From NCBI GenBank assembly GCA_963812605.1, contig CAWEWF010000002.1, positions 1 to 64,000 of the forward strand: a stretch of DNA of 64,000 nt, written 5' to 3'. The notes under the pieces are model-generated. The model had not been told where the DNA came from. It saw only the letters and a list, made by a program, of their open reading frames with translations, and made no database searches. Both the position numbers and the translations under genes were made by a program. The stretch comes from an uncultured Verrucomicrobiae bacterium (GTDB taxonomy: Bacteria > Verrucomicrobiota > Verrucomicrobiia > Palsa-1439). Shown here piece after piece: positions 7,088-43,756 of the stretch. The first letter of the stretch is position 1. Each line of letters opens with the position of its first letter.

Positions 7088-7386
7088 TGGAACGTGCCCA
7101 CGTCAACGGTGGAGGTGCCGATGCCGAACGCGACGAAGAGTGCTTTCACGATCACAGGCGCACCGGCGATGATGAGGCCGCCGACGATGGAGAGTTTCCC
7201 GGAATCGGTGTCGCCACGGCGGATCGCAAACCCGCCGCTAATGACACAAATCGTCCCGAAGAGGAACCCGATGAGCATCACGATGCCCAACGCGCTGCTG
7301 GTGCCTTGCGTTAGGGTCGTTCCGCCGCCGGCCTGAGCAAGGATCGGAGCGAACCGCAGTGTTGCTGTAACGAATATTGTTTTCAT
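7084..7386 (-). CDS. VirB2/TrbC-like pilin
   Basis: 100 aa, signal peptide plus two hydrophobic helices; first gene of the operon. Confidence 0.75.
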   Translation of the reverse strand: MKTIFVTATLRFAPILAQAGGGTTLTQGTSSALGIVMLIGFLFGTICVISGGFAIRRGDTDSGKLSIVGGLIIAGAPVIVKALFVAFGIGTSTVDVGTFQ

Positions 7387-7394
7387 GTGCCTGG

Positions 7395-7440
7395 GTTATA
7401 CTGCGATTAGCTGCGGTAGTTGTTCCCGTTTGGGAACAAC
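7395..7440 (-). promoter_or_regulatory. Palindromic operator plus -10 box for the T4SS operon (copy 1)
   Basis: GTTGTTCCC-GTTT-GGGAACAAC at 7419-7440. On the minus strand, 19 nt later comes TATAAC (7400-7395), then 8 nt to the pilin ATG. Confidence 0.75.
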
Positions 7441-7472
7441 TTTTGATGGGGTAGTCTGCAAGATATGAGTTG

Positions 7473-8396
7473 ATGAAAACGACCATCCCTCCGGCAAAAT
7501 CCAATGAAAAACTGCACGAACTGGAATTACACCTGCGGCAGCGGATTCGCGGCCAAGATCACGTGTTGCCGCGTATCGTGTCGCTACTTCAGCGTGGTGA
7601 ACTCGGCTTGACGAAACTCGGTCGCCCTCGTGGTAGTTTCCTGTTTCTTGGCCCAACCGGCGTGGGCAAGACGGAAGTCACACTGGCCTTCACCAGTTTT
7701 CTGATGAGCAAGGACCATGTGTTCCGCTTCGACATGTCCGAATACCAGACCCAGGAGAGTTTGGGGCTGTTGCTGGGCGGCAAGCTCGGTGAGCGCGGAA
7801 CGCTTGGGATGGTTTATGACCGGTCAAGAGTCGGCACGTTGCTTTTTGACGAAATCGAAAAGGGGCATCCCCGCGTTCTGGATGTCTTTCTGCAAATCCT
7901 GGACGCAGCGCGTGTGACAATGGCCAGTGGCGAGACACTTGAATTGAGCGGGTTCTACGTCGTGTTTACATCTAACATTGGCAGCGCCGACTTGATGAAC
8001 CTGCAATACTCAACGCCAGCCACGATGGAGCGGCACGTTCTGACACGCGCACAACAATCGATGCGCCCTGAATTGTATGCGCGCATCACCGAGAAGCTGG
8101 TGTTCAACCGACTCAGTTACGACCACCAATTGGAGATCGCGCAGCTTCTGTTAACCCAGGAGTTAGCATTCCTGAAGTACAAGGGCCATGAACTCAAACC
8201 GGATGCCGCGGTTCTCCCCTTCCTCGTCCGTCGAGGTTTTCATCCTAAACTGGGCGCTCGTCCGATGCGTGATGCCGTCGAAAAACTTATCGGCGATGCA
8301 GTGGCGATTGATCTGCTGACCGGCGGTTCTGGCTGCGGAAAGCTTGTCGTAGATGAGGCAGCGAATTGCCTGGCAATCGGATATTCGAGCGATTAA
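7473..8396 (+). CDS. Stand-alone ClpB/ClpA D2-type AAA+ ATPase
   Basis: Motifs IRGQDH, GPTGVGKT, FDMSEY, LLFDEIEK, TSNIG and GARPMR. No N-domain or D1 ring. Confidence 0.85.
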   Translation: MKTTIPPAKSNEKLHELELHLRQRIRGQDHVLPRIVSLLQRGELGLTKLGRPRGSFLFLGPTGVGKTEVTLAFTSFLMSKDHVFRFDMSEYQTQESLGLLLGGKLGERGTLGMVYDRSRVGTLLFDEIEKGHPRVLDVFLQILDAARVTMASGETLELSGFYVVFTSNIGSADLMNLQYSTPATMERHVLTRAQQSMRPELYARITEKLVFNRLSYDHQLEIAQLLLTQELAFLKYKGHELKPDAAVLPFLVRRGFHPKLGARPMRDAVEKLIGDAVAIDLLTGGSGCGKLVVDEAANCLAIGYSSD

Positions 8397-8506
8397 GCGG
8401 AGGCGACGGTGAGTCGTTTGGAAATGTTCGAGGTTCTTCGTTGCGCTTATTAGTGCTGGCAAACCGCGCCCCTTTTAGGAAACGTCAAAACCGACGCGCA
8501 CGGCGG

Positions 8507-10447
8507 CTAGAAAGGGATTTCTGAAGCATCGGTCGGAGGGGGCGCAGGGGCGGCGTAGTTCTCTTCCGTCACCCCCGCCTGCTTGAGCAATCCATAGAGG
8601 GTTTCAATCGCATCACGTGATTGTCCTTCAAGGATTGCGGTCCGACGGTCGGGCCGCACTTTAGAGAACGTGAAAATCACACGTGTGATGGCACGGGAGA
8701 AGGCTACAAAAAAGGCACATGTCTCCTCCACGGGCGCCCGCCTGAATCCCCACAAGGCAGAATCTTCTAAACCGATGAATACGATCGTGTGGTATTCGAG
8801 CCCCTTGCTCTTATGAATGGTCATTATAGGCACCGAATCGCTTCCCTCGAAATCGTCTACTGCTTCGAGCCAATTGGTGGTTCGTTTGCGTGCGTCAGCG
8901 AGCCGGCGGGCGCAGTGAGTCAGGTTCTCCTCGTAGAAGTTCCCCCGACGGTATTGATGGTGATAGTTCCGGAATGCGTCTGGACCGACAAAATCCATAA
9001 TCTCAGACAGCATAGTCCGGACGGCTTGCTCCTCCGCGGGAATTGTGTCCACCATTTTGGCGAGGACGTTACAATGCGCGGCGATTGCACGTTCTGCGTT
9101 GGCTGCACGCGGGTCATCCGAGTCAACTCCTTGTGCATCAAAATATACGCTACGAGCGACGCTCCACGCATCCGGCGATCTTTCCATTAGAGCGGTTCTC
9201 AGGAAGGCCAGCAAGGTTGTGGTCAGCGGTTCGGCGAGCAGGTCTTGGAGATCATTCTCGACGCGCGATTTGACTGACTGGGCCTGCAGCGCTTCAGTGA
9301 TAGACTTCGTGTAGTGGTCGGGAGTCTGGCGAGTCAGGAGACAGATATCGCGAGGGCGCAAGCCATCTTGACGAATCCATCCGGCTACCATTTCTGCAAC
9401 GTGAGCCGCCTCTGTGTTGTGATCGGGATAAACGATGACACGGCATTCGCCTGCCTGCTCCTTCTTTTCTTCCGAATGTTCAGACATCGGCGCTGTTGGG
9501 TCGAGCGCATGAACTAAATGACACTGGATTCGTACCAACTCAGGCGCGGAACGATGGTTTATCCGCAGGAGTTCGGGGTTCGCGCCGAAGTCGTTCTTGA
9601 ATTGCTTGAGTATACCCTCAAGGGCACCGGCCCATCTCATGATGCATTGTTTGTTGTCGCCAACCGCAGTGATGACGGCTTTGGAGGCCTTGAAGGCGGT
9701 GACAGTCAGGTCGTAATGGATATTTGTGGTGTCTTGGAACTCGTCTAGGAAGACGAATGCGTACGTCGCACGGAGTGCGCGCAGAATGCATTCGTTTTGT
9801 CGGAGGATCAGTTCAGCCATCCGCCCGATCATTGGGAAATCGAGTTGTGAAGGCTGTTCGATGTGTACAAGTCGTCGCCAAAGTTCTTGGCTCGCTCCTT
9901 CAGCTATCGACGACGCAGGCAGCAGTGAAATGGGCAGTGGTGCGAAGAGAAATTGACCACGGTAGAAAGCGTAGTGACCAATTGTTGCCACTTGGGCTGG
10001 CGTCAGGTTGTTGTCGGACGACGGCAGGGTGTCGAGTAGGTACCTCATTTGCTTCGCAATATCGAAGTTAATTTGGTAATCTTGGTTCGGTCGGTAGGTA
10101 TCCGGCAAGCCGTTACGGAACCGGTCGAGAAGCCCTTTTGAAAATGCATCAAATGTCAGCGAATCGAAGCGGCGCGCCAACTCGCCGCCGCAGCGCCGTT
10201 TGACTCGCTCCCGGAGATTCCTGGCAGCGTCGCGCTTGAAGCTAATTGCCAAGATTCGGCGAGGATACGGACAGAGTCCGGTTTTTAGCAGGTAGCTGGC
10301 TCTTTGCGCAAGCAGTTCGGTTTTGCCCGCGCCTGGACCGGCCACGACAAGCGTGTTGGTTAGGTTCTTAACCGCCCTCTCGGCGGCAGGCTCAAGGCTT
10401 CGGATTCCTTCAGGCTGCCATTCCGATGGTTTAACTAATCGGCTCAT
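8507..10447 (-). CDS. gajB: UvrD-like helicase, Gabija GajB
   Basis: Motifs AGPGAGKT, LDEFQD, VGDNKQCI and MTIHKSKGLEY; overlaps the upstream OLD nuclease. Confidence 0.8.
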   Translation of the reverse strand: MSRLVKPSEWQPEGIRSLEPAAERAVKNLTNTLVVAGPGAGKTELLAQRASYLLKTGLCPYPRRILAISFKRDAARNLRERVKRRCGGELARRFDSLTFDAFSKGLLDRFRNGLPDTYRPNQDYQINFDIAKQMRYLLDTLPSSDNNLTPAQVATIGHYAFYRGQFLFAPLPISLLPASSIAEGASQELWRRLVHIEQPSQLDFPMIGRMAELILRQNECILRALRATYAFVFLDEFQDTTNIHYDLTVTAFKASKAVITAVGDNKQCIMRWAGALEGILKQFKNDFGANPELLRINHRSAPELVRIQCHLVHALDPTAPMSEHSEEKKEQAGECRVIVYPDHNTEAAHVAEMVAGWIRQDGLRPRDICLLTRQTPDHYTKSITEALQAQSVKSRVENDLQDLLAEPLTTTLLAFLRTALMERSPDAWSVARSVYFDAQGVDSDDPRAANAERAIAAHCNVLAKMVDTIPAEEQAVRTMLSEIMDFVGPDAFRNYHHQYRRGNFYEENLTHCARRLADARKRTTNWLEAVDDFEGSDSVPIMTIHKSKGLEYHTIVFIGLEDSALWGFRRAPVEETCAFFVAFSRAITRVIFTFSKVRPDRRTAILEGQSRDAIETLYGLLKQAGVTEENYAAPAPPPTDASEIPF

Positions 10448-12510
10448 CTTTGACCGGAAGTTGAGATTGAATCGCCTTGTTCAATCGAGAGAGTACTGGC
10501 GGCATGTGTTCGGCCAGATCAGTAGGTTTGAGGCGATTCAACGCTAGGAAATGGCTGGTGGGTTTGCCCTTACCCAAAAACAGGTATGAGTACCAGATGA
10601 ACTCCTGTTTCTCTTCTTTCGTGTAGGTGGCACCGTCGCCTCCGCGGTCTTTCAACACGGCGGCAATCGCCTTTTGAACTCGCTCGGCATGCTTCGCTTC
10701 CTCTTTCGGTATCTGTGGGGTACCGCCCCCAGCGGCGTGGTATTCGGACGGAAATGCACAAAGCATCAGGAAGTCGAGGTCGAGTGGTGCGGAAAAGAAT
10801 ACGCCATGTTTTTCGAGCATTTCCATCCATCCCGGAAGGGTTGTTTTATCCGTGACATCGTATTTCAGCATTTCTTCAAACGCCTTCGCATCCATTACCT
10901 TGGTTCCTCCCTTTCCGTCACTTATCGACAGAATATCCTCTCGTGGAACCCCTGCTTCCATCAATTGCTCGCAGGCGTAATGGATGCGCCCCCAGCCACC
11001 GCCGAGTCGTTCGCGGTCGAGGTCCAGTAGCGTGAGGTGAGGGATGTCGAGGCCGCGCAGAAGTTTCCAAAAGTGGTTAACGTATCGTCCGCCAAGAGGC
11101 ACGACGGAGATGAGGTTCGTGTCGATCGCGATTCCGTCAGCCGCAGCGGCGCGCGGTAACACGACTTCTTCGCTGTCACCCTCTCCCAAAACTACGAGTC
11201 GGGCAAAGTAGAGTTCCTGGGTATGCCCTGACGGCTTCTTTCACGTATTTAAATGCCTCATCGGCACTGGCAGGAAGGGCGATTTCCTTTACCTGGGTCG
11301 CAAGCGATTCGGTGTCTAGGCGCAAGTACCGAACGCGCTCCGGATCTAGCCGGGACATTATGGCGGGAGAGTGACTTGTAAGAACGACTTGTCCCGAGCT
11401 GGAGTTCGCGATGGTCTGTAGAAGTTCAATGATTCTCCCGAGGTAATGGGGAGCAAGGTGGTTCTCGGGTTCTTCAATTGCGAACAAGGTGAGGGCGGGC
11501 GGCCGGAGCCGATCCACCGAGAACGCCGCTAGCGGGTCGGGGTCTAGGGCGTTAATCTTGGCATTGTCTTGTCCTGCTTCGCTCGCTGATGCGAGTTGCT
11601 TCTCTTTGACTGCCTCTTCGATTTGGAATACCGAAGCGACGAGAGAAAAATAGAAGAGGGATTTCAGCCCCTCACTCAATCGCTCAATCGGGTGCTCCCG
11701 CCCATCGCCACCGGGGCTGAATACCGCTTCGACGTGTCTCAGCAGTTCCTCCAAGGCACCGCCCACGGGTTGGAACGCGACATTCTTGAATGCGGGCATG
11801 TCGTGGAGTTTGCGCCACGCCGTTCCTAGACATTCGTGCAAGTAGCGAATGGATTCCTCGTGGCTCACCGATTCCCGGATTGATTGCGCGGAGTCTTTGA
11901 CGGACAGTTTCACGGCTTCCGACCATTCGATTGCGTAGAGAAGACGGTATACCAACGAGCCGGAAGCCTGGGATAATTGTTTGGATGCGTCCCTGAACGC
12001 CGGCACATATAGCACGTGAATCATGCTCCGTTCATATGCCTGCATCGGACGTTTATGCTCTTCCTTGACGTCGTCGGACTCCGTCGTGATCCAGTACGCG
12101 TTATCATCAACGTCCCCACCTGGAAGGTTGCTTCGTGTCCAGGCGCCTTCCAATCGAACACGACAGAATAGTTTGCCATTTTCCCCTAGAACCATGTGGT
12201 TGAAGCAGGGGGGGATAGCCGCTCCTTCGGCGGCAGGAACCGCCAACTCAGGAAACTCGAACCGTGCCTCAATTATGAGATCGATTTGGTCTATCGTGTC
12301 GGGGTCGGCGTTGTGGGGAATGTGAAAGTCTTCCGGTTGGAGGCGGCGATCGCCTTGCGATATGCCGAATAATCTGGCGAGTGCCAGAAGGACGGTGGTC
12401 TTTCCGGAACCGTTCGCACCTATGAGTGCCGTGAGGTCGTCGAAAGCGATGGTTCCTGGCTCCGCACCGAAGCAGCGAAAGTTCTTCAAGGTCAATTGGG
12501 TAATTCTCAT
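10431..12510 (-). CDS. gajA: OLD-family ABC-ATPase/TOPRIM nuclease, Gabija GajA (frameshift near 11218)
   Basis: MRITQLTLKNFRCF, GANGSGKT, IEEPENHL and LTSHSP; the second frame has the TOPRIM motifs GEGDSE and LLDLD. Confidence 0.8.
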
Positions 12511-12719
12511 GGCGCTAGTTTCCGTGGCCTTTCCGTTCCACCGTCGCTCGGAAAAACGAGGAATAATGGCGTTGGCCCATGCGCGAGCCGAGACTCGCTT
12601 GCTTTGGTATATGCCTGGCTCCGGGCAGTGCATTGCCTTTGACTCGGGCTCGTTTCGGGAGTCCGTTCGGATTCGTCTGTCTTCGCATCTGTGTCTATCA
12701 ATACCATACGTCATGCGGC

Positions 12720-12748
12720 TTGACAAGTAGATTTAACCCGTGTTAAAT
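12720..12748 (+). promoter_or_regulatory. Sigma70-like promoter with overlapping inverted repeat
   Basis: TTGACA (12720-12725), N17, TTAAAT; palindrome ATTTAAC-CCGT-GTTAAAT at 12731-12748. Confidence 0.6.
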
Positions 12749-12761
12749 GTGGTGCATACAA

Positions 12762-28740: not shown

Positions 28741-30231
28741 TCACAGCCATCGCCTCCTAAACCACCGCGAGACCCTGCCGTTCGGTTCGATAGGCGGCAA
28801 AACGGTGCGCTTGAAGCCATGTTCGCAATGGACCAGAACAGCGGTGTGCTTCGGCAGTGCGCGGAGAATGTGGGTCTTGAGCTTGTGTTCTTCGTGCTCG
28901 GCGTAGCTGCGGTTGGTTTGGCCGGCGGAAACACCCCAGGTTTTCTTGACAACCCGCTTCTTGCCAAGGAAATCGGCGCTGTCCAGTGCGCCCTCCTCGT
29001 CAGCGGCTTTGAAAATGATCCGATTACGAAGATTGAGCACGAGCACCTTCGCCTTTTCCTTCCCCAACGCCGGTAGGAGCGATGTAGATGATTGGACGGC
29101 GGCAACGATGGTGGCGTTCGCTTCGCGGATCACGTCGATCGTGTTGTAGTCGCTCATTCCTTCGTCATTCGAGGTAACGAATCGCTGCGCTTCGTCAGCC
29201 CACAGAATAAGGAGATTCTTGTCTTTACGCTGGTCCTTTGGCCGGTCGAAGCGCCGCAAGACGTGCGTGTAGAACAGCATCTTCAGGAACGTGTTCACGT
29301 ACCGACGTTCGGTTTGGTACTTCTGCGGCATGGCGACGCAGATGATCTTTCCTCGGTCGATGTCACTGAACTCGAAGGTGTTGTTGCCGGGACAAAAGAC
29401 CTGGGCAATGTCCGGCGTGAGGAAGTTGTGCAAATAGTTGGCGATGGTCTCCTTCACGCCGCCCATTTGCTCCGGCGGTTGGGTGCGGTAGCGGAACTGG
29501 AGATGCTCCACGAGCGCGCGGCGACGCTCGGTCGGGTAGCCTTCCGACAACTCGGCCAGCGTGTCGTCCAATTCCTCCTCGTTCAGCAGTAGGTCGTGGG
29601 CATTCTCCAAGGTCACATCGGCCTGAACTTCGCGCAGCGCCTCCAACGCGTGGGCGATGTGGGTCTGCGCCTGGCTCTTGAAGAATCCCTTGTCGCCCTG
29701 TTGATTGAGGCTGGTGGCGGTATCGACGACGAATTTGGCAAAGGTGCTGTACGGGATGCCGGTATCGGACGTGAGATTGTAGGTGTGGGTTGGTTTCCAA
29801 CTGAGGAGCGCGTTGTCGGGCCTGATCTGGAGCAGGATCAAATCGTTTTGCCGGTTGAAATGCCGGGCCATCTCCGAGAGCGTTTCCCAAAATATGCCCT
29901 TGTCATCAATGCAGAGGCCACCCCAATGCGGTTCATTCTGAAAGACTTGATACAGGAGCGGGGTAATCCCGGAGCGGGTTTTCCCCGAGCCGGTGTCGCC
30001 GGTAATCAGCCAGCCGCGACAGAAATCCTCCCGTGACCACGACAGTCCCTTCAGGTGCACGATGGCGTTACGAGGCGGGCGACGCGTAGCCGCAATCGCG
30101 TTGCCCGCCAGAGTCCCAAAAACCACCGCCAACGTCCACGAGAGCGGTGGAGCCAGACTCAGGAGAAAGTACGCACCGGCGGCAAGAGACAAGCCGGCAA
30201 TTGTGAATCCGAGATACCGAGCGTTGCTCAC
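28741..30231 (-). CDS. VirD4/TraD-like type IV coupling protein
   Basis: GTG start overlapping the upstream stop; two N-terminal TM segments; GDTGSGKT; LILWADEAQ. Confidence 0.85.
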   Translation of the reverse strand: MSNARYLGFTIAGLSLAAGAYFLLSLAPPLSWTLAVVFGTLAGNAIAATRRPPRNAIVHLKGLSWSREDFCRGWLITGDTGSGKTRSGITPLLYQVFQNEPHWGGLCIDDKGIFWETLSEMARHFNRQNDLILLQIRPDNALLSWKPTHTYNLTSDTGIPYSTFAKFVVDTATSLNQQGDKGFFKSQAQTHIAHALEALREVQADVTLENAHDLLLNEEELDDTLAELSEGYPTERRRALVEHLQFRYRTQPPEQMGGVKETIANYLHNFLTPDIAQVFCPGNNTFEFSDIDRGKIICVAMPQKYQTERRYVNTFLKMLFYTHVLRRFDRPKDQRKDKNLLILWADEAQRFVTSNDEGMSDYNTIDVIREANATIVAAVQSSTSLLPALGKEKAKVLVLNLRNRIIFKAADEEGALDSADFLGKKRVVKKTWGVSAGQTNRSYAEHEEHKLKTHILRALPKHTAVLVHCEHGFKRTVLPPIEPNGRVSRWFRRRWL

Positions 30232-30584
30232 CGTGCGTACCTCCCGATCAGGATGCCCGCCAGCAGGGCCAACGCAGCACTGAACACCAAGGCGAATATC
30301 GGGAAACGGTTCAGGTCGCTGCGAATCTTCGGCACATCCCGCAATTCCTTGATGATGTCGGCGGCGCGTCCCGTGAAGTCGCCGCATAACCGCTCCAACT
30401 GTTCCATGGTACTGCGGAAGTCTTCAAACGACGGGGGTTTTGGTCCGTTGAGTTGGGCGTGGGTGAAGTAGATTTCCCACAATTCCACGGCGGCCAGCAT
30501 CGGATCGGCATCTTTAACATTGTACTTCTTCTGCCATTCCAGAATGGCGTTCTTCAGCGCCTGTTTTGGGTCGTCGTCGCTCAT
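30228..30584 (-). CDS. Mob-region hypothetical protein with C-terminal TM
   Basis: 118 aa, translationally coupled on both sides. Confidence 0.7.
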   Translation of the reverse strand: MSDDDPKQALKNAILEWQKKYNVKDADPMLAAVELWEIYFTHAQLNGPKPPSFEDFRSTMEQLERLCGDFTGRAADIIKELRDVPKIRSDLNRFPIFALVFSAALALLAGILIGRYAR

Positions 30585-31279
30585 GGCTCACCCGGCAAAA
30601 TGATCTGACGGATGGAGTCGATTTGTTCGTGGAACTGCCGCTGCCAGTTCTTGAGCCGCTGTCGATCCATGATGGAGAATGTCTGGTGCTCAATCCCCTG
30701 CCCGACCGGCAGATTGTCCTGCTGTAGCAACGCGACCAACCAGTCATGGAGTTTGGGCATGGTCATTTCCTTGGCGGCGAGTTCCTCCAGCAATCGCTTC
30801 CGTGTCTCGCTGGCATCGTAGATGGCAAACTGTTCCGTGAAGGCGCGGTTTTTCACCACCAGATAGCGGCACCGGCGGTCAAATGCGTTCGAGATGATCC
30901 GGGCCTGTTCCACGCTGTCGAGATCGTGATTGATCGGCGACACAACCGTCAGAACTGCGTCCATACTTTTAAGGACATCGAAGACGGCTAACTCGGCGAA
31001 ATAGTCCAAGAACAGGTCCGTCGACGCGGCCCGGCAATCCACCACCACCAGCGGTACGGTTTCGACGGCGGCAACGAGTTCGTCGAGTTCCCGTGCGTTC
31101 GCCAGATTCACGAATCGCGCCTCCGGGTGGAATCGCTTCAAGGTCGAGTTCTCATTGTCGGTGTCAATGGCGGTATGCTGGATCTGTTGGTCCTTAAGGT
31201 ACTGGATGAAGTTGACGGCAAAGAAACTCTTCCCGACGCCGCCCTTTCCGTTAAGAATCAGGTTTAGCTGCCTTTGCAT
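30581..31279 (-). CDS. ParA/StbB/MobD-like ATPase
   Basis: MQRQLNLILNGKGGVGKS, IDTDNENSTL and VVVDCRA. Confidence 0.75.
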   Translation of the reverse strand: MQRQLNLILNGKGGVGKSFFAVNFIQYLKDQQIQHTAIDTDNENSTLKRFHPEARFVNLANARELDELVAAVETVPLVVVDCRAASTDLFLDYFAELAVFDVLKSMDAVLTVVSPINHDLDSVEQARIISNAFDRRCRYLVVKNRAFTEQFAIYDASETRKRLLEELAAKEMTMPKLHDWLVALLQQDNLPVGQGIEHQTFSIMDRQRLKNWQRQFHEQIDSIRQIILPGEP

Positions 31280-31281
31280 GG

Positions 31282-31636
31282 CTAGATGGTCCGGGGGTTG
31301 GCGATGCGCGGTCCGCCGGTGTTCACGGGCGGCACGGAAGATCGCTGTGGTTGAGATGGCGAGTTTCGGGAAGCGGGACGGCGCTGCTTCCTTGGACGGG
31401 ATCGGGCGCAGGACGTCCCGGCAAAACCGCGCGACAGTCGTGCGCGAAACCGGCACATCGGCGGCACGCAGAATTTCCGTGATGGACTGGTACGACGCGC
31501 CCCTGCGCCGAAGCTCGGCAATCCCCGGTTTAAGCGTGAGAAGCTTCTGCCACTTCCGTGGCACAGTCGGGGCATAGGCCCGCACGGCCTCGGCAAATCG
31601 GTGGTTCGTCTGATCAGACGTAGACGGCGCATTCAT
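31282..31636 (-). CDS. Small HTH-like DNA-binding protein, StbA/relaxosome accessory-like (frameshift near 31340)
   Basis: ELRRRGASYQSITEILRAADVPVSRTTVARFC helix pattern. The likely true end (GPRIANPRTI*) is in another frame, so the ORF track fuses it to the ParA-like gene. Confidence 0.55.
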
Positions 31637-31670: not shown

Positions 31671-31706
31671 ACTTCTAACGCGAGTTAGAGGTCGTGCGTC
31701 TTTTGT
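31671..31706 (+). other. Candidate oriT hairpin
   Basis: ACTTCTAAC-GCGA-GTTAGAGGT stem-loop followed by CGTGCGTCTTTTGT, between the divergent stb-like and relaxase genes. Confidence 0.45.
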
Positions 31707-31744
31707 TTTCATGCGCTCCAGTAAAGCGCATCCGGCAGAAAATG

Positions 31745-31789
31745 TTGTTCCCAAATGGGAACAAGTTTCGCGGTGGGAAGTGATAGAAC
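31745..31789 (+). promoter_or_regulatory. Palindromic operator plus -10 box for the relaxase (copy 2)
   Basis: TTGTTCCC-AAAT-GGGAACAA (31745-31764), 19 nt, TAGAAC (31784-31789), 7 nt, ATG 31797. Confidence 0.75.
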
Positions 31790-31796: not shown

Positions 31797-34536
31797 ATGC
31801 TGTCGCCGAAAACGAAATACAGCCTGATTAACGCCAAGCAGTACTTTGAGGAACACCTCTGCGCTGGCGATTATTACAGCGAGAGCGAACGCGTCCTGGG
31901 GCAATGGTTGGGAAACGGCGCTGAGCTTCTGGGACTGTCGGGCCGGGTAGGCCAAGAGGAATTTCTCCGCCTGTGCGACAACCTCCACCCACAGACCGGG
32001 GAGCGATTGACGCAACGACTCAAGACCACCCGCACGGTCGTCGATGAAACCGGTCGGGCCTATGAAGTGGCGAATCGGCGAATCTTCTTTGACTTCACCT
32101 TCTCACCACCCAAATCGGTTTCGATTGCGGCCCTGGTCGGTAATGATCCACGCATTGTGGAAGCCCACCACCGTGGCGTGGAAGCGGCGTTGCGGGAACT
32201 GGAGCAGTTCGCGGGAACGCGGGTGCATGCGGGAGAACGAATGACCGACCGCACCACCGGGAACATAGTTTGTGCCATCTTCCGGCACGATACGTCGCGG
32301 GCGCTTGATCCGCATCTGCACAGCCACTGCATCGTGTTCAACGCCACGCGCGACCCCGTCGAAGGCCGTTGGAAAGCCTTGCAGAATTTCGAGATGCTGC
32401 GGGCGCGTAAATACGTGGAGAATGTCTATTACCACGAGTTGGCGCGTGATCTGAAACAATGGGGTTACAACATCGTCAACCATCCGCGCGGTGACTTTGA
32501 GATTCAGGGTGTTTCCCCGGAATTGTGCGAACGGTTCTCCAAACGACATCAGGAAATCGATCAGAAGACCCGCGATCTCTTGGCACAGAATCCCGAACTG
32601 GCTGGTGGGAACGTCGCCCAGATCCGCGAGAACGTGGCTCAGAAGAACCGAGCGCGGAAACTCAAGAACGTTCCACAGGCAAACGCTCCAGGCACTTTGG
32701 GGGAGCCAGGTTACCGAAACTGAGAAAGCAGCGATCTCGGCGTTGCAGCATGGTGCGCTGCTGAAGCCGGATGAGTCGAAAGCGGGCGATGCACTGGCCG
32801 CCGTTACCTGGGCGGAGGAGCACCTGTTCGACCGCCGGTCCGTGGTTCTGGAGCACGAGTTATGGCGGCACGCCTTGGAGCACGCGCGCGGTCAAAACAT
32901 CACGCTCACGGCTATTCGACAAGCCACGCGTGATCGGGATTACATCCGCGCCGACCGTGGCCCATTTCAAATCACGACCCGGGCGGCGTTGGAACGGGAA
33001 TGGGCCATCGTGTGCCTGGCGAGACACGGGAGTGGTCGGTTCCGCCCGTTCAGCAATCACTTCTCGTCTTCCAAGCGTTGCTCTTGACCCGGACCAGCGG
33101 AGGGCGGCTGAGCATATCCTGGCTTCGCGCGACTTCGTCACCTTGTTTCGCGGCGGGGCCGGCACCGGAAAGAGCTTTACGTTGCGGGAGGTCAAGAATG
33201 GTCTTCGGACAGCCGGGCATTCCCTGCAAGTCCTCGCGCCGCAACGGCAGCAAGTCATTGACCTGGAGCGAGACGGAATGACGGGAGCCCAAACGGTGAG
33301 CGAGTTTCTCACGAAGCAGGACATGCCTCGGGGTGCCGTCATCATGGTGGATGAGGCCGGTCAGATTGGCGCGAAACAGATGCAACGACTGTTGCGTTTC
33401 GTCCGAGATAACCATGGCCGCGTCATCCTCTCCGGCGACACGCGGCAGCACGGCGCCGTCGAGGCATCCGATGCACTTCGGGCCATTGAGAAATACTCCG
33501 GTCTACGAGCGGCAGAACTCCAGGAGATCCGACGACAGGACCCCGCTCGCGCCCGGACCAAAGCGGAGCAAGCACAGATCATCGAGTACAGGCAGGCGGT
33601 GAAGGAAGCATCCGAAGGGAAGTTGGTGGATTCATTTCGCCGTTTGGATCGGCAGGCGCAATTGTGGAGTGTGAGTCCCTCAACCAACAGGAGCGAGCTT
33701 GCGGAGACGTTCCTCGAATTAGCGGAAGGCAACCACTCGGTCGTGGTGGTTTCGCAAACGCGGTCGGAGATCCATCAGGTGAATGACCATGTGCGCTCGG
33801 CCCTGAGATCGCGTGGCAGGATCGGCGCGAACGAGCAGGTAGTGGCGGCGCTTGAACCGGTCGATCTGACGGCAGCGCAGAAACGGGATCGGCGTTTCTA
33901 CGATGAGAACAGCGTGGTGCTCCTGAACCGTAACGCGGGCGGTTTCAGGAAAGGCGAAACGGCACGTCTCGTAGCCATCACCCAGACCGGGTTGGTGCTG
34001 GAAGGTGGAGAGAGAATACGGAGAGTACCCGTTCCGATTCCTGGACCGGTTGACTGTTTGCCAGCCTCGCGAACTCGCGTTGAGCATCGGGCGACCGTCT
34101 GCAACTGAAAGCCAATGGCCGCACCCGGCAGGGCCGTCGTCTGGCCAACGGCGAACTGGTCACAGTGGACAGAGTCCTGAACGGTGGCCGCGTCAGGCTG
34201 CAAGATGGACGCATTCTCGAAAGCGATTACCGGCAGTTCGTGCGGGGCTTTGCCATCACCTCGTATGCGTCGCAAGGCAAGACAGTCGATTACGTCCTGT
34301 TCTCTGATTCGACGATCAAGGCCGCGACCAACCAGCAGCAGTGGTACGTGACGATTTCGCGGGGGCGCAGGGGAATACGGGTTTTCACCAGCGACAAGGA
34401 GCAACTGCGGGAAAACATCTGCCGGTCCGGTGACCGCGAATTGGCCTTGGACATGGCTGGGGCGCTCCGGCAAGGGATGGACGTGGGCGTGAGTATGGAC
34501 AAAGCACAAGGCATCGGACGATCACCTTCCGTTTGA
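31797..34536 (+). CDS. MOB-F (TrwC/TraI-like) relaxase-helicase (several frameshifts)
   Basis: GDYYSE, FDFTFSPPKSVS, HDTSRALDPHLHSH, GGAGTGKS, VDEAGQ, SGDTRQH, TSYASQGKTVD and YVTISRGR. Confidence 0.9.
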
Positions 34537-34544: not shown

Positions 34545-35012
34545 ATGAAACGAAGCCAAAGTAAAGACGCACCTTCGGGTGACCCGCCGAAAGGGAATTT
34601 TCTCTCGTGGAACAGAGCCGGTCAGCCAAGGTGTCTGCGGGTCGAATTGGCTGACGGCACCTTCTATGTGTTCCCGTACCAACACCTAGCCCACGTGAAA
34701 TTTGAGCCGGGAACCGACGAGACGATCAACATCACCATCTCTAGCCACGAGGTGAAGATCACGGGCAAGAACTTGCGAGAGTTGGCCTTGGCGTTTCAAA
34801 AATTCACGATTGATTGGGTGAAGGAATTGCAGGCCGGGACGCTTCGTTGCGGCTGCCAATGGCGAGGGCGTCCATATTGCCAGCATCGCGGTCACCAAAA
34901 TTCAAGCGTCGCAATGACCGGGTCTATCTTTGCTGATATGCGCCGCAAATTTATCTTTTTTGACTTGCAATTTATGCCCTCCAATCGCTCATATGTACTG
35001 ACTTATACGTGA
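34545..35012 (+). CDS. Hypothetical protein downstream of the relaxase (3' end uncertain)
   Basis: Protein-like ORF (LRVELADGTFYVFPYQHL...ITGKNLREL); probable frameshift near 34840. Confidence 0.55.
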   Translation: MKRSQSKDAPSGDPPKGNFLSWNRAGQPRCLRVELADGTFYVFPYQHLAHVKFEPGTDETINITISSHEVKITGKNLRELALAFQKFTIDWVKELQAGTLRCGCQWRGRPYCQHRGHQNSSVAMTGSIFADMRRKFIFFDLQFMPSNRSYVLTYT

Positions 35013-35037
35013 GGGTGGGGAGAAAGGGGGTTGGCGT

Positions 35038-35731
35038 ATGCAAGGCGAGACGCCAGTGAAATTTGAAGGGCCGGGCAAACGGCAAGTCTTGGTCGTCGAT
35101 GATCACACCAGTGTGCGGATGGCACTGCGATTCGTGATTAATGGCGAGCCGGACATGGTCGTTTGCGGTGAGGCTGAGGATGCGCAACCCGCGCTGGCAT
35201 TGGTCGAACAACTGCTGCCCGGACCTCGTGATCGTCGATATTGCTCTGAAATACTCGCACGGGTTGGACCTGCTTCGCGACTTGCACATTCGCTATCCGA
35301 GTATGCGGCTATTCGTCCATTCCGCTCACAACGAAGAGCTGTATGCCCCGTTGTGCTTCGATTGCGGCGCGTACGGGTACATGAACAAGGGCCAGGATAT
35401 ACAGACTATCGTTCACGCCATCCGGACAGTGTTGGATGGGGGAGTATATCTTAGCCCACGGATGTTGCAGTGGTTTACCGGTTGCGCGCTGACCCGCGAA
35501 ACGGTTGAGATGGCACACCCACTTGGTATGCTCAGCCCGCGCGAATTACAGGTTTTCGAGATGTTGGGGCGGGGGCTGGATATCAAGGAGATCGCCGGGC
35601 AACTCTCGCTGGACCACAAGACCGTCGAGCTTTACCGTCAACGCATCAAGACCAAGCTGGGGGTCAACTCGGCGTCCGCAGTGCTTCGTGCTGCTGTTTT
35701 GTGGGACAATTCACCCGCGTCGTCAGACTGA
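35038..35731 (+). CDS. NarL/LuxR-family response regulator (frameshift near 35220)
   Basis: VLVVDDH...VCGEAED, PDLVIVDIAL and LSPRELQVFEMLGRGLDIKEIA. Confidence 0.85.
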
Positions 35732-36112: not shown

Positions 36113-36463
36113 ATGAAGTACCTAAATATGGTGGGGCCTCAGATACGCAAGTTGCGGTATGTGAGGGGGTGGTCGCAGGAGAAGCTCGCGGAGAAACTGC
36201 AGCTACTGGGCTGGGACATCGGCCGCGTGAGCCTGGCCAAGATCGAATCCCGGCTGGTGCACGTGGAAGAATATGAGTTGCTCTTCTTCGCCAGGGCGTT
36301 CAACGTTCGTCTGGACGACCTCTTTCCCCCGATCGATACGGGGCGTCAAATGCGTGACGTAGTAGCAGAGTTGATGCACCGAAGAACGTCCTCAGAAGCT
36401 TCTCTCAAAAAAGTGATTGCGGTTGGAAAGATAGCGAGGGCTCCGCGCCGATGGTCGGATTGA
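36113..36463 (+). CDS. XRE-family HTH transcriptional regulator
   Basis: VGPQIRKLRYVRGWSQEKLAEKLQ...SLAKIESR. Confidence 0.85.
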   Translation: MKYLNMVGPQIRKLRYVRGWSQEKLAEKLQLLGWDIGRVSLAKIESRLVHVEEYELLFFARAFNVRLDDLFPPIDTGRQMRDVVAELMHRRTSSEASLKKVIAVGKIARAPRRWSD

Positions 36464-36566
36464 TGATTTCGGCGGACCAGCCCGCCTTGGAACAAGTTTA
36501 TGGCGCGAGACGGATGCGATAAAAGCGTAGTCTGGCGAGTTGGTCGCGCCACCAGTATCTGTCCAG

Positions 36567-39500
36567 TTAGTGAATACGGCCCCTGACCGGGAAGATGATC
36601 TCCGGGATTAGTATCGCTGAAGTTACCGCTGCCAACCATGCTAGTACCGGGTGCCGCACCACGTCCGTCCGTCCGCCTCCAGCCTGCCAAGCAATAAGCG
36701 TGTTATTCCCATTCCGAGCAAGCGACGTAATACGGAATACTGAGGCCGGATTGGTCGGATTAAGCCCCACCAGATACTTCAGCAGGTTGTTCTGGCCGGT
36801 GCCGTCTGCATCACAAGTAGCGCAGGAAACGCTGTTGGTGTCGGTGCCGCCCCCGCCAAAGTATTGCGCCCGCCACCAATCTGGAATTCCGTCGCCCACA
36901 CTGTCACCTGAATTCTGCGTAACGGAGAAAGTCTGCCGGCGATGGCCAAGGAGCCACTCCGGGCCGTGGTGTTGGAATTGACTGCAACGGCGTAGTTGAC
37001 TGTGCCATTGCCTGTGCCATTGCTGCCCGAGTTGATTGTGATCCAGTTTGTACTGCTGGCGGCCATCCACACACAATTACTTGTCGGGCAGGCCACTGTC
37101 ACATTGCTTACGCCACCAGAAGAGCCAAAGTTGGCAACATTCGGGTCGATGGCGAAGTTGCAGATCAGCGGAGACTGGTTCGTTGTGAGCGAAATGTCGA
37201 CGCGATAGAACTTCTTGGATTGCACAGCGTTAAGGTCAGTTGTAGTGACCTGATTGCCGTTGGTCAGCGGGCCTGCAAGGCCCATGAGTGGCGACCAAGC
37301 GCTGCTTACCAACTCGGTAGTGAATTGCAGGGTGTACGTCGGCCCTATTACCATCGGGCTAAAGATCAAGTTCTTCTGCGCGGGCTGACCGGCAACATTG
37401 ACGATTTGCAAAATGAAGATCGACGCTGGATTCGTCGGGTTGAGTCCAGCCACGTACTTGAACAAGTTGTTTTGGCCCGTGCCATCGGCGTCGCAGGTTG
37501 CACAGGAATGGTTGTTGGTAGTTGTACCGCTGCCGCCAAAATACTGCTGTCGCCAAGAATCGGGTATCCCGTCACCGACACTGTCCACACCCGGGCCAAC
37601 GGGCACGTTGAACGCAAGCAGCATCTTCGAATAGTTCGTTACCGCGCCAACTGCCGCAACTGACTCCACTGAATACTGGAGATATTGTGACGGCGAAAGC
37701 GACACCGTTGGCTCGGAATACACTCCGACACCTGCGGGAACCTGTCCCACCTTGGAATAGCTGCCATATGGCATTACCGCGCGGTAGATGTCATATCGAA
37801 CCACATCGCGGTCGTTGTAGCCGTCGTCCTCCGACAACGCCCACATGATGATGTTCGTGCCGTCTTGACCAAATCGTGCCGCAACCGAGGTCGGCGGAGT
37901 TGGAGGGCTAATTATGGTCGAGACCTCAATTGCTGATGACAGTGGGCTCTCATTCCCCGTTGTGTCGAGTGCACTGACGGCCACGAAGTAGTTTGAGCCG
38001 AGGGTCAGGCCGCGAAGTAGTACATTCGTGCTGCTAACCTGTACTGGTGACGGCATTCCCTCCACGGAGGCGGTTCCATCGTAAGGCGGCCCATTCTGCC
38101 CCGCTTGGTAGTAAACCGGTAGCGGCAAGGTCCGATTGGTATTGGCAGCCCACGACACCCAAATCCGGCTTTGTCCGGGGGATACGGACACACCCGTCGG
38201 CGTGGCCGGTGGCGTGGTGTCAATCAGGTTGATCTCGACACTGCCGGACGCACCTCCCGCAACTGAAGCGAGATTCACCTTTGCGACCGTTCCTCCCGTT
38301 GGCGCTTGCAATAACAAAGTCACCGTTCCGTTGCTGCTGACGACTTGGACGCCCGGGATGTTCGTATCGGCGTTTGCATTCAAAAGTTGAACACCTGTTG
38401 CCGTCGCAGTGAAAAGCCATTGTTGGGTGGCGACAGCGCCCGTGTTCAGCATCAGGTTGCTGACAACCACCGACATCTGGGTAACACCGTCGGCGGGCAA
38501 TGCGTTCGTGCTGGGGATCAATTGCAAATTCCCCGTGAGCAGAGGCGGGGCCACCGCAAACGTGCCAAGGTTTGTGATCGTGGCTGTGACCGTGTTGGAA
38601 ACAGTGTTCACTGTACCGCCGACCAATTGCCAATGATTCGAGCCATCCGGGAGCCAATAAATCTGCAAACTAGTCGGGTCCAGCCCCACAACATCCGCAT
38701 TGCTGTAGGTGATGCTCAGAATCGCAGTTCCATTGAATGTGTTGGTGCTGGCAAACCGATAAATGCCGCCGATGCCGTACACGTAGTTGCTGGCGCCATC
38801 TGGCGGAAGATAAACTCCCTGAGTCCCGCTTTCAGACGCCAACGGACGAAAGCTTAGAAGGCTCGTATTACCGCTGCCTGTCGTCAAGTGGGGCGCCCAT
38901 GACGAAACAACTTGCGCGCCCGAAGCCAAATCGCCAGCAAGGATGTTCAAATCCGCTTGACCAGTCGAGATGATCGTGTTGCCGCCGCTCTGAACACGCG
39001 TTATGAGTTGCTTGAAAGCGTCAAAAATGACGGGTGCTGCGTTGATTTCCCATTGTGATAACAAGTCTGGCCAAGTCACGGATGGGAAATAATTTGTTGT
39101 TATTGCAGGATACGATTCTGTAGGATAATGGGCAACTCCAACAACGGCTCCGCGTTCGACCACTGCTTCAGCACCGCGCTCACACTCTCCATCTACATTC
39201 AAACCAATCTCCGTCAAGTCCACATTTAACCCAAGATCGAATCCGTTGGTGGCAGCGTAAACCGACCGTTCGTAGGTTATAGGACTCCCTGTGTATAGCA
39301 TTTCCCATTTTTCTGTCAGTCCACGTGGATAATTTGGAAGGTCATATTGCTGCCAGTCTCCAAGAAGTCCGGACCAATAGGTTCTAAGTTCGACAAGGCC
39401 AATTTCCCAGACACTTCTGTACGATAAGGGCTTGTGCCACCTTGTTGGTCCAATTCTTCCAAAGGAGTGACCCACCGTAATTGAGGTTTAAGAAGAAACC

Positions 39501-42500
39501 ACCTTGGAATGGCAAGCCAGACGAAGCTGAAACTTGCTGGGCCGTATCCTTTATCTCCGCGGCAATGCCAAGGTCTGCCATCACACTGCATTCTCCTGTC
39601 AATCCAAGGACGGTCGCCGACTCGCCATGCGCAAATGACTTTTTATAGCCAACTATCGCAGCGATATCAGCGAAGCATTCGCTTCAAAGCTGACGGGGGT
39701 ACTTTGACCGCTTGCGTCGAGAAAAGCGACACTTCCAAGAGTGCCTTGAAGATTGCCACCGACTTGAAAATCGCCTTCCACCGATTGGAGGTTTCCAAAA
39801 AACGACGGTTCAATGTTTGTTTTGACATTGTCATAAAACAACCATTCAAAAGCATCCAGTGCACCGCTTTCTGTAATCAGATTCCCTAAATCCAGATACA
39901 GCTTCAGCGCGTTCTCATTTGGATTAGATGAATTCGGGTCTGCAAATAAATATGTAGATTTCAGGGACCGGACCACCGAATAGTCCTGCGCCAGCAGAAA
40001 AGCCTCCACTATGATTAAACGATACGGAACTCGCTTGCAGAGAAGCGCCTACGTCGAAACCTGCGCCGATGCTTACCGTAATCTCGTCAGAGTCGATACG
40101 CGAGATAGACTCATTGTTTGTCGTTAGGCCAACAATATTGTGCCGCACTTCACTTTCAGCAGAGACATTACCTCCGATGCTGACACCCGGGAACCGGCAA
40201 TGGAACATTAACCCCCTCACCCAGTTGATGCCTCCACACCTGATCGTATTGGCGCGCGATAACCTGCGCTTGGAATGATAATGTCTGTTGGACTTGATCC
40301 CCCACGCTGACTGCAGTGTTTGAACCGTACCGACTGCACCCAAGACGGATGAGGGAATGCAAACGCACACTGTTCCAATTCCATCTCCGAAAGAAACGCC
40401 GGCAACTTCGCCCGGCCAAATACTTGAAATGTCGTTTGTCTGAGGGATTGCAGTGCCACCCGCCTGCACCAAAACAGCAATCCCGCCTTGCGGGCCGTTA
40501 GTGGAATTTACAACGCAATAGTAGCGGTACGCCGTGCCGCCTTGTTCAATCGTTGTTATACTTGGATTCACGTCCGGCGATATTCGGATGAGATGATACG
40601 GCCCGCCCGTACCCGTGAGCGGAATATCGCCCACATTTTCGGTTCCGGATGGCACATTCACACCGGTCAACTGCACCAAAGTGTAATCAGCGGCAGAGAC
40701 ATCCACGACATAACCGTTAGCAGCAGGAATATTGGGCAGTGTGAATGTCCCGTCGCCGAGTGTGCTTGTGGCAAAAGGTTTGTTTTTAACCCTCACCTGC
40801 GCGTTAGCCAGTGGTGAGCCGTTGCCCAACACGCGACCAGTGAGCGCGCCTGTTGCGACATTGCGGGTATCAAGTGTAAAGATGGGAGACACTGCTTGTG
40901 CGAAGTTCCCGCCACCGGGTATTGATAGTTGAATACGCATAGTCCGGGACAGTGTATTTGGAAGGTCTAACCCGGCGTTCCAAATCAAATGATAGTTGGA
41001 ACCGGAGCCGACGGCCGTGGTCACACCGTCACCGGTGATGTTGGCCGGCTGCAGGGTGTAGGAAGCTCCGCTGTTGGTGGAAACCGAGGCTGACACAAAC
41101 ACGGAAGCGGTCACCCCACTCAAGTCGTAGTACACATCCACTAAATCTGTGCCGGTGCGCTGTACTGCACGCACCTTAGAGAGAGCAGCGCTGCTGCCAG
41201 CACTCAAGATCGTGTAAGAAAGATTATCGATTGCGAATCCGTCCGGTTCGCTTCCGACAATAGCTATAGTAAAACCCCCGATGGGGACGGGAATAGAGAA
41301 CTCCTCGATTCCAATCTGTGTGTCTGACGCGAGCCAAGTACCACTCCGTTTGTGTCGAACCAAGTGACAACCGTGCTTCCAATCTTATCGAAGTAGCCGG
41401 CATCGAAAGTGACGTTGTAGGCAACCGTTCTGATAGCCGGATCAGATGGCTCTACGAAGATGACAGTAATAGGGCCCTGGAACTGCGGTGATCCGGACAG
41501 CACCGGCGAAGTTGGATCGGAACCGTCTGCAGTGATGAATGCTGGGCCGTTGGTTCCTGATGAAAACAAAACGCCGGAGGACGAGTATTGGTTGCTGATT
41601 AGCGTTCCTACGGGAAACTCACTGAACGTCTCTGTATTGATCGTGTAATTGTCGACACTGGAGCTCGACTCCAGCGCTCGCAATGCTCCCCACGACATTA
41701 GCGCCCGCCATACTCTGGACCACCACATCGTAAATGCCGACTTCATCCGGTTGCACGTTGCTAAGTGTAAGTGTGCTATTCGTGGCTCCGTTGATGTCGG
41801 CACCATCTACCTGCCATTGATATACCAACGGCAATGCGCTTACCGCTGTGACGCTAAAAATCGCAGTTGAACCAATATTCGCATATTGATCTTGGGGCTG
41901 CGTCGTGATCGCGAGAGCGAGGTTTGTCACAATCGTCACATTGTCCATCGCGAAATGCTCGGCGCTCGAACTATCGCCGGGATGGGGTGTGCCTCCGTAG
42001 GAATTGAAATACACCTCATTTACTCCGAGATAATTGAAGTTGATCAGGGTGGGAGCAGTCGCACTCAACGTGTAGAGGTTGGAATATGTCAACGAGGCAT
42101 CTACGAATCCCAACACTTCCACCTGTAAATTGTCACGCCACGCAGCGGTCATGTAAGCGGATACGAAATTAAACGGTTGAGCACTGGTGATACTGCCTGA
42201 ATTCCCTGACCAATTGTAAGCCACGTTGGGCGGAGAAATCGTGGCGGCGGGATAGCCGCTTGGATTGCCCACATTCGTCGCGCCATCCCAGTAGCCGAAA
42301 TTATTCCAATTCAGCCCCTGATAACCGGCCGGTATGTTCAATCCGTTTGTAGTCACCGTCAGATCGTCGAACGTTATTAGGGATGTACTGGAGGTGGGAT
42401 AAATCGTCAGAACGGCCCCGACACTTGCCGCTGACCCAATATTGTTGCTCACTATTACCGAATACGTCCCTGTGTCAGGCGCGGACACATTGCTTACCGT

Positions 42501-43328
42501 AAGAGTGGTCGCGCTAGAGCCGGCAATATTGTCTCCATCCGTTAAGTTGCTTCCGTTCTTCTGCCACTGATAACTCAAGGGGGCCGTGCCGACAGCCGTC
42601 ACTGTGAAGTTTGCGTTCCCTCCAATGGCAGCAGCCTGCCCCACAGGTTCCGTAGAAATGCGTGGATTCAGGTTTGTCACAATCGTCACGTTGTCCATAG
42701 CGAAATGCTCAGCGCTCGAACTATAGCCGAGATGGGGTGTGCCTCCGTAGGAGTTGAAATACACCTCGTCTACTCCGAGATAATTGAAGTTGATCAGGAT
42801 GGGAGCAGTTGCACTCAACGTGTAGACGTTTGAATATGTCAACGAGGTACCTACGAATCCCAACACTTCCACCTGTAAATTGTCACGCCACGCAGCGGTC
42901 ATGTAAGCGGATACGAAATTAAACGGTTGAGCACTGGTGATGCTGCCTGGATTCCCTGACCAATTGTAAGCCACGTTGGGCGGAGAAATCGTGGCGGCGG
43001 GATAGCCGCTTGGATTGCCAGCATTCGTCGCCCCATCCCAGTAGCCGAAATTATTCCAATTCAGTCCCTGATAGCCTGCCGGTACATTCAATCCGGTTGT
43101 AGTGACGGTGAGATTGTCGAAGGTCACAAGCGTCTGTTGTGCGGGAGCGTTAGTTGGTCCGGATACCAATAAGAGAACGAGAGATCCAAGCCAGACGGAG
43201 GTAAGCGGCTTGAGCCAAATCCCCAGCCGACTCGGGGGAGCGCGAAATACATCGGCCATCCCGCCAGTTGTTACGGCCTCGCCTGGCTCTAGCGGACTGC
43301 GGTGCCAATCATAACTACGATCTCGCAT
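36567..43328 (-). CDS. Giant secreted/surface protein (~2200 aa) with Ig, FN3, carboxypeptidase-regulatory-like and BACON-like domains; multiply frameshifted
   Basis: Abutting minus-strand ORFs; signal-like TM near the N-terminus; Ig motifs (PLSYQWQKNG, DTGTYSVIVSN); FN3 (DTTPPATPTG...GNES); DGIPDxW repeats. Confidence 0.75.
41921..43125. repeat. Near-identical ~450-bp intragenic duplication (copies at ~41921-42372 and ~42671-43122)
   Basis: Long exact runs are shared at a 750-bp offset, e.g. CACCTGTAAATTGTCACGCCACGCAGCGGTCATGTAAGCGGATACGAAATTAAACGGTTGAGCACTGGTGAT. Confidence 0.9.
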
Positions 43329-43473
43329 CTTACCCTCGCCCAGATTCGGGTTGGTTTTCTGTATCAGATTCAGACTCCAAATCCAATCACAATCAGAGAG
43401 GGGAAGAAGGTGTCTGGAGGTATTCATCGAGACGCAAACGTGGGCTGTCAAATGGAGTTTCGTGCAATCGATT

Positions 43474-43518
43474 TTGTTCCCAAATGGGAACAACTTACCA
43501 GCCGGTGACGAGTACACT
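43474..43518 (+). promoter_or_regulatory. Palindromic operator plus -10 box for the excisionase operon (copy 3)
   Basis: TTGTTCCC-AAAT-GGGAACAA (43474-43493), 19 nt, TACACT (43513-43518), 7 nt, ATG 43526. Confidence 0.75.
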
Positions 43519-43525
43519 CGCGGCA

Positions 43526-43756
43526 ATGTCAGGGAACAACGAAGCAGTGAATACCTCGCCACAGGCACCCGCACCATCGCTGCCGGATTCAGAACGCCTT
43601 GCGTATTCCGTCGAGGAAGCGGCGCAGCTATTAGGTGTGCACTACTTCAGTGTCTACCGGATGATCCAGCGCGGGAAACTTCGCCCCTGCCGTGTGCTGC
43701 GCGGCAAACTACTCGTGCCTCGGTCGGAACTGCTCAAACTCTTGAAGACTGAATGA
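43526..43756 (+). CDS. Excisionase-like HTH_17 protein
   Basis: RLAYSVEEAAQLLGVHYFSVYRMIQRGKL...LVPRSEL. Confidence 0.85.
   Translation: MSGNNEAVNTSPQAPAPSLPDSERLAYSVEEAAQLLGVHYFSVYRMIQRGKLRPCRVLRGKLLVPRSELLKLLKTE

Follow-up and report, generated by a model that had tools for sequence, protein, structure and literature searches.

Why does one and the same 20-bp palindrome stand in front of the pilus, relaxase and excisionase-like operons of a mobile element, and what would bind to it? The palindrome, hereafter the box, lies in a stretch of 64,000 nucleotides (the window: positions 1-64,000, forward strand, of contig CAWEWF010000002.1 in assembly GCA_963812605.1, from an uncultured Verrucomicrobiae bacterium), to which all coordinates refer, and the element is an integrative and conjugative element (ICE) with a MOBF relaxase. 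On comparative grounds, the box is a real, conserved and element-specific regulatory site. It is probably the operator of a dimeric class II activator, encoded by the element itself, which would act as the master switch for MOBF ICEs of one family in soil Verrucomicrobia. We infer activation rather than repression, the transcript starts and the element-encoded binder from the sequences.

The activator would be bound about 42 nt upstream of the start, in place of an absent -35 element, and would fire weak promoters that retain only the TA of a -10 hexamer, often in both directions. Its targets would be the pilus, AAA+, relaxase, traK/coupling, excisionase-like and helicase operons, and most of their mRNAs would start at the ATG or 1-2 nt ahead of it, that is, without a leader. 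The operator would have split into classes A, B and C, so that co-resident ICEs could be switched separately. Some satellites carry a box of one class before the excisionase, the relaxase or the origin of transfer (oriT), and one satellite family, with tandem A, C and B modules, would for that reason respond to any helper.

Position and geometry of the box

Three exact copies of the box had been reported in the first-pass annotation and all were found in place (Table 1). A search of the window with up to 3 mismatches returned no further copy, and shuffled versions of the window contained 0.29 copies on average and never three. The box is a perfect palindrome of 8-4-8 bp with the half-site GGAAC. 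Its centre agrees with the AAA(T/C) described, but copy 1 reads GTTT on the plus strand, i.e. AAAC on the minus strand. The spacers of 19 nt, the hexamers TATAAC, TAGAAC and TACACT, and the ATGs located 8, 7 and 7 nt further on were likewise as annotated; TATAAC and TAGAAC lack the T at -7. Concerning the reverse promoters proposed at copies 1 and 2, the spacing is correct both for CAAGAT with the ATG at 7473 and for TTTACT with the ATG at 31712, but the latter opens a short frame only, and the traK-like gene starts at 31636. This ATG lies inside the oriT-like region, with the hexamer TTTACT (31720-31725) in a hairpin loop, and is kept in 20 of 24 relatives and gone in the other 4. In the reverse direction, copy 3 has no ATG at that spacing and is a one-way box.

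The distance from the box centre to the ATG is 43.5 nt for virB2 and the AAA+ ATPase, and 42.5 nt for the relaxase, for 31712 and for 43526. Taking the conserved TA as -12/-11, the box would cover -51 to -32 of the predicted start, with its centre at -41.5. Class II activators usually sit at the upstream edge of the -35 region, centred near -41.5 to -43, and the centre of the box appears to fall there.

Table 1. Coordinates of the box copies, their promoter hexamers and the main features of the element.
Feature	Position	Strand	Remarks
Mating-pair operon virB2-B3-B4-lipoprotein-B5-B6-B8-B9	1..7386	-	Cut by the contig end; continues in relatives with virB10 and two genes
-10-like TATAAC, virB2 promoter	7395..7400	-	TA conserved, T at -7 not conserved
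Class A box 1	7420..7439	.	Common to the divergent virB2 and AAA+ promoters
-10-like CAAGAT, AAA+ promoter	7459..7464	+	
Stand-alone ClpB-D2-type AAA+ ATPase	7473..8396	+	Kept in all element classes examined
traK-like (start 31636), traL-like, traM-like (30228-30584) and coupling protein genes	28741..31636	-	Leadered operon; TraL model PRK13886, below cut-off
oriT-like region	31674..31731	+	Inverted repeats 31674-31689 and 31711-31731; motif GCGT-N4-T(G/C)T
Class A box 2	31745..31764	.	Between oriT/traK and relaxase
-10-like TAGAAC, relaxase promoter	31784..31789	+	TA at +20/21 in 26/27 relatives
MOBF relaxase-helicase	31797..34536	+	Three frames in the assembly; MobF model above cut-off
Small conserved post-relaxase protein	34545..35012	+	PH-domain-like model: Z 8.6, root-mean-square deviation 2.0, 74 residues, pLDDT 63
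Orphan NarL-type response regulator	35038..35731	+	Frameshifted here
XRE-family protein XRE1	36113..36463	+	
Class A box 3	43474..43493	.	Precedes the excisionase-like operon
-10-like TACACT	43513..43518	+	
HTH_17 excisionase-family gene (43526-43756), 216-aa protein (43776-44426), second HTH_17 gene (44445-44654)	43526..44654	+	
tRNA-Lys(UUU) 5' half	46613..46650	-	Right end of the element; intact copy after the integrase on contig C14

The first-pass annotation had named loss of the spacing in relatives as a sign against its proposal, and the spacing was found to be kept. When promoters sharing their first 40 nt are collapsed, the start codon, ATG or GTG, falls at +32-36 counted from the box end. 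This is true of all 27 ICE relaxase, all 12 satellite relaxase and all 12 virB2 promoters, of 11/12 AAA and 15 of the 20 xis-like promoters and of all 4 XRE3 promoters, while 7% of random positions have a start there (ATG only). The remaining promoter elements are poor. Apart from the TA given in Table 1, no TAnnnT hexamer was present in the relaxase (0/27) or virB2 (0/12) promoters, and the best match to a -35 element reached at most 3/6 in all promoter sets.

Furthermore, no motif resembling a Shine-Dalgarno (SD) sequence was found in the relaxase (0/27), satellite relaxase (0/12), virB2 (0/12) or xis (0/20) promoters. The relaxase, virB2 and xis classes combine this lack of an SD with a -10 about 7-8 nt before the start, as expected of leaderless genes. 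The idea of leaderless mRNAs throughout the regulon did not extend to the helicase/tnpV operon, where only 1/12 promoters have a start at +32-36, nor to the traK operon, both being leadered; at the other targets we infer leaderless transcript starts. A crude set of host genes (n=335) showed an SD peak and no leaderless peak, so the arrangement of the box promoters looks element-specific.

Distribution, box classes and satellites

The box could have been a generic genomic repeat, which the first-pass annotation had itself put forward as a point against its proposal, but the genome scan placed its sites in mobile elements. The genome has 6 exact sites and 11 with at most 1 mismatch, all 11 in such elements: besides the element of the window, these are a second ICE (contig C6), satellites (C1, C3 and C14) and the region upstream of a helicase operon (C7). 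With a weight matrix, 12 element sites scored at least 21 bits and, after a gap, two borderline matches of about 19 bits lay outside elements. The earlier suggestion of one dimeric regulator at the -35 region of the pilus, relaxase and excisionase-like promoters is consistent with this confinement, the fixed geometry and the lack of a -35 match, all of which is comparative evidence.

Regarding other genomes, class A (the version in the window) is carried by 30 of the 301 genomes in the class; at family level the count is 18 of 41 and at genus level 11 of 15, and the reversed box, used as a control, was absent from the family genomes. Where records are titled, the same box and XRE relatives come from Verrucomicrobia; the scattered single matches listed in other phyla are probably due to chance. 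Among more distant families with a related virB4 or post-relaxase protein, two genomes (G539 and G490) had no box at the relaxase or virB2, and mapping of others found no element (G091) or only a coupling protein (G516 and G468). Another genome (G199, contig C19, L129-L131) carries relaxase, coupling and xis genes 91-97% identical to those of the window together with three class A boxes, and no virB operon was present in the stretch fetched. Nothing on the box, on these ICEs or on promoter arrays for several helpers was found in the literature searched, mostly listings and beginnings of abstracts, with subscription papers outside its scope. The box would define a transfer regulon for Verrucomicrobia ICEs, none being described in that literature. 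Moreover, it could serve as a compact marker to find helpers and satellites, including those lacking a relaxase, and to assign each satellite its likely helper class.

The box occurs in three versions: A (CCC), B (CGC) and C (GTGTA-N5-TACAC). Class B, TGTTCGC-N4-GCGAACA, occupies the same places in genomes with 95-97% identical VirB4 and an element without a class A box (4/4 sites in G211 C11, 3/3 in G133 C61 and 2/2 in G042 C4), and its exact form was found in 18 of 45 family genomes. Class C, GTGTAGC-N-GCTACAC, belongs to a more distant subfamily with VirB4 of about 73% identity. There it occupies the AAA promoter of 4/4 elements for which this was fetched and the only relaxase promoter available, the start being similarly far away in both. 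The case for this class is one of position, because its short pattern (at most 1 mismatch) is not above the control genome-wide.

Of the 24 stretches with at least two A or B sites, of which two seem to duplicate others, 13 have A boxes only, 5 have B boxes only and 6 have both; these last are satellite-type loci with two boxes 110-210 nt apart. The class changes at all promoters of an element together, and A and B elements interleave on the VirB4 tree, where B forms one clade in 0% of the bootstrap trees. Between A and B, the pilus proteins differ no more than they do inside each class. Moreover, both classes exist inside one genome (G211), each following its element. A cognate protein carried by the element would best explain this concerted switch. 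The A/B pair, two symmetric bases apart in near-identical elements, could be regarded as a natural experiment in the change of regulator specificity. Variant boxes at the same position (L327 in G109 C3, L207, L223, G110 and G076; types TGTTCTC, GGGCGCAA and GGGAGCA) were also observed, which suggests more than three box classes.

Concerning satellites, 12 relaxase-bearing ones (two in this genome) carry three boxes in a row at intervals of about 105 nt: class A in front of the relaxase, class C at +107 to +109 and class B at +206 to +211. The C site was present with at most 1 mismatch in 11/12 and the B site with at most 2 in 10/12 (null 1/5000 each). For each module, 9-12 of the 12 satellites, depending on the direction, have an ATG or GTG 41-47 nt from the module centre. 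In other satellites, which lack a relaxase, a single box separates an excisionase-like gene from an oriT-like region; in one of them (G000 C1:139007), the oriT is similar to that of the window. Judged by sequence, this reuse of the box by satellites is of the same kind as that of the islands switched by SetCD and AcaCD. The chance falls just short of even that the classes are orthogonal operators switchable without any change in the transfer genes, that the A-C-B array, with its bidirectional modules and own ATGs, works as an OR gate for three helpers, and that an all-leaderless regulon is driven by a small XRE-type activator. If so, the array would be a genetically encoded device for listening to several helpers, and its three boxes make the broadening of helper range directly testable.

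The putative regulator and its alternatives

Judged by its layout, the box system works like the regulons in which a master activator also serves satellites, and the surprising part is the specificity classes and the three-box satellites. In the TraR/tra box system of Ti plasmids, a palindrome near -43 is likewise common to divergent promoters around oriT. Unlike TraR, the LuxR-type protein found here is a regulator with a receiver domain that does not track the box, and no LuxR protein binding acyl-homoserine lactones, nor a synthase for them, was present among the window proteins, the element being incomplete on the contig.

According to PMC4542580, SetCD (SXT/R391) and AcaCD (IncA/C) promoters have a poor -10 and no -35 element, with an element-specific motif at -35 of the excision, relaxosome and pilus promoters, and both activators act in trans on unrelated islands (mobilizable genomic islands and SGI1) that carry the motif before xis. 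Here too, the motif lies at -35 of excision, relaxosome and pilus promoters with weak -10 and -35 elements, and class II activation is predicted. The differences are a perfect 8-4-8 palindrome that would work in both directions, targets that are mostly leaderless in appearance, interleaved specificity classes, the three classes placed in tandem in satellites, another host phylum and a MOBF relaxase. No match to the FlhC or FlhD families was found among the 64 window proteins, part of the element being off the contig, and fold searches with two core proteins gave one PH-like fold and one case with no clear match. Since the search returned no FlhDC-like pair and the palindrome is a two-way site, the regulon was not filed under SetCD/AcaCD.

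QseC of Mesorhizobium ICEs is another parallel: according to PMC8789080, it is a small ICE-borne helix-turn-helix (HTH) protein of the C-protein type that switches on a leaderless mRNA. Its operator lies where divergent promoters overlap, and its families have distinct operators. In that account QseC controls only qseC/qseM through paired operators, whereas here a single operator precedes all the transfer operons. No box lies before XRE 36113 and only a single one before XRE3, in place of the paired operators that precede QseC's own leaderless gene, and none of qseM, TraR and FseA was identified.

Which protein would bind the box? The first-pass annotation had proposed three candidates. The TraK-like protein (31636) can be dismissed, as its recognition helix varies among elements that share the same box, and so can the protein encoded at 43526, whose helix is identical in classes A and B; its two class-diagnostic residues are in the N-terminal tail, beside the promoter, and were read as linkage. 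The third, the XRE protein at 36113, belongs to the best family of candidates, though it is not class-specific by itself, and no solved structure matched it. In fact, every ICE mapped end to end has at least one XRE of one small family. At helix position 2 the helicase-linked XRE carries Val in class A (5/5 elements) and Glu in class B (4/4, in two sequence lineages), and the XREs of class C differ from both types. Given the rest of the explanation, it is conceivable, though a little doubtful, that a small XRE protein carried by each element is the binder.

Several observations weigh against the activator as proposed or against this candidate. The helicase-linked XRE is missing from three class A ICEs, XRE1 of element L171 (class A) shares its helix with that of L182 (class B), and in another type of satellite the Glu-type XREs adjoin A boxes, B boxes or both; the XRE family is for these reasons a lead and not a result. 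None of the core proteins shows a residue diagnostic of class where DNA would be read; the AAA+, 216-aa, PH-like, TnpV-like and 136-aa proteins, together with the TraK-like and excisionase-like ones, were rejected for this. Two class C elements also have an A-like or B-like site, and a single origin of B is compatible with the strongly supported branches of the VirB4 tree. In the satellites, the frames behind the start triplet are not conserved although the ATG is, so this triplet may be part of the promoter instead of starting translation. Words resembling an SD were seen in 3/12 AAA and 5/24 traK-side spacers. Finally, the related sequences are kin, hence the promoter counts overstate independence, and the RNA-library contigs of relatives, which cover core genes and cross the promoter, and so do not reveal starts, may be DNA and were not used as evidence.

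The box could instead be the operator of a repressor, with an element XRE blocking extended -10 promoters at -51 to -32 in a negative feedback of the Kor type, known from IncW and IncN plasmids. As a rule, XRE proteins act as repressors; one paralogue has a box in front of it, as in feedback loops, and the TG or CG pair just before the hexamer of many promoters may let them function without a -35 element. However, a repressor would need no fixed distance, yet here it varies by no more than 1-2 nt between unrelated classes of promoter and between the two directions. In addition, the -10 hexamers are poor, as the absence of TAnnnT from the relaxase promoters indicates, and a satellite would gain little from three helper-specific sites before its own relaxase. 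Repression is thus regarded as unlikely. A different proposal is that host factors (LexA, CRP/FNR-type or ClgR-like) bind the boxes and that each class answers to a host signal of its own. The half-site is similar to TGTTC-N4-GAACA, the LexA motif of Verrucomicrobia, and no element protein tracks the class cleanly. The box spacer is N8 and not N4, though, and the three lexA promoters of the genome carry other palindromes. Class B also resembles the GTTCGC-5N-GCG motif of ClgR/PopR, HTH activators of Actinobacteria, but according to PMC9775585 and PMC2905415 the ClgR spacer is one base longer and the regulon is that of host proteases. With no host regulon beyond the two borderline matrix matches, 4/15 genus genomes without a class A site, and a class that follows the element within one genome, a host factor is improbable.

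Two further explanations are very improbable. If each GGAAC half-site were the -35 element of an extracytoplasmic function (ECF) sigma factor, of which GGAAC is typical, the palindrome would consist of two back-to-back promoters, in agreement with the divergent genes that most boxes serve. Nevertheless, one-way boxes such as that at 43474 keep both halves, GGAAC and the conserved GTA are 20-21 nt apart, more than the 16-18 nt usual for these promoters, class C lacks the AAC word, and no sigma factor was found among the window proteins. A class II activator could also be the orphan NarL-type regulator, which follows the relaxase operon in 8/9 mapped class A ICEs (it lies apart in G181), has a nearly invariant recognition helix and belongs to a family that binds 20-bp palindromes. 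But one and the same helix is shared by A, B (L183) and C (G145) elements, and the gene was not found in G211, which has a complete class B ICE, nor in G133 and G110. The preferred explanation remains the element-encoded class II activator.

The element and its other genes

The window contains a relaxase, a coupling protein and a VirB4-type ATPase, as expected of a MOBF ICE. The MobF model scored 225.7 bits against a cut-off of 100 among the window proteins. The coupling protein matches in Pfam and the TraG P-loop were above their cut-offs, and the VirB4/TraC models below. The names B4, B5 and B6 come from Pfam/NCBIfam matches under the cut-off and the other virB names from position; no VirB11 match was found in the virB-like operon. 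The ClpB-D2-only ATPase, presumably co-regulated with virB2, may be a stand-in for a second transfer ATPase or a chaperone. The names traK and traM are assumed from position and from the gene order of IncP plasmids. In the oriT-like region, two conserved hairpins, whose stem changes are paired among relatives, flank the motif, and the nick site is presumably at 31706/31707, following the MOBF consensus. Many window genes are frameshifted; their relatives are intact, so these may be assembly errors. The link of the tRNA-Lys half to the integrase and the intact tRNA on contig C14 spans a contig gap.

Relatives of the small post-relaxase protein occur in other Verrucomicrobia families and in Bacteroidota clusters. 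With the 216-aa protein, the best results of the fold search (Foldseek E 0.06; Z 6.7) were no clear match, and the protein may still bind DNA; look-ups in protein atlases returned hypothetical proteins only.

The cargo at 8507-28750 is related to defence (UvrD with OLD-type TOPRIM/AAA, an SNF2-DUF1156-DUF499 cluster, Abi_C, and HamA with a split helicase), and 36779-43577 encodes big secreted proteins with Ig, FN3 and BACON domains and a 300-nt internal repeat (41920-42219 and 42670-42969). Near the element end, a 35-nt motif is repeated at 44667-44814 and 45717-45751, around a GAF-domain gene, and may correspond to integrase arm sites.

Outside the window, two elements carry lexA-imuA cassettes (L002:9453-14202 and L003:10693-16434) with the ImuB and DnaE2 domains in one frame, and TGTACA repeats, not the box, in their promoters. 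Finally, a conserved non-coding stretch rich in hairpins lies beyond the helicase box at the end of G000 C7 (L007:19480-19943) and in G211 C11, and recurs after the virB operon. Rfam gave no match for it, with only tRNAs found in the two loci examined, and the stretch is possibly a single-strand promoter or origin.

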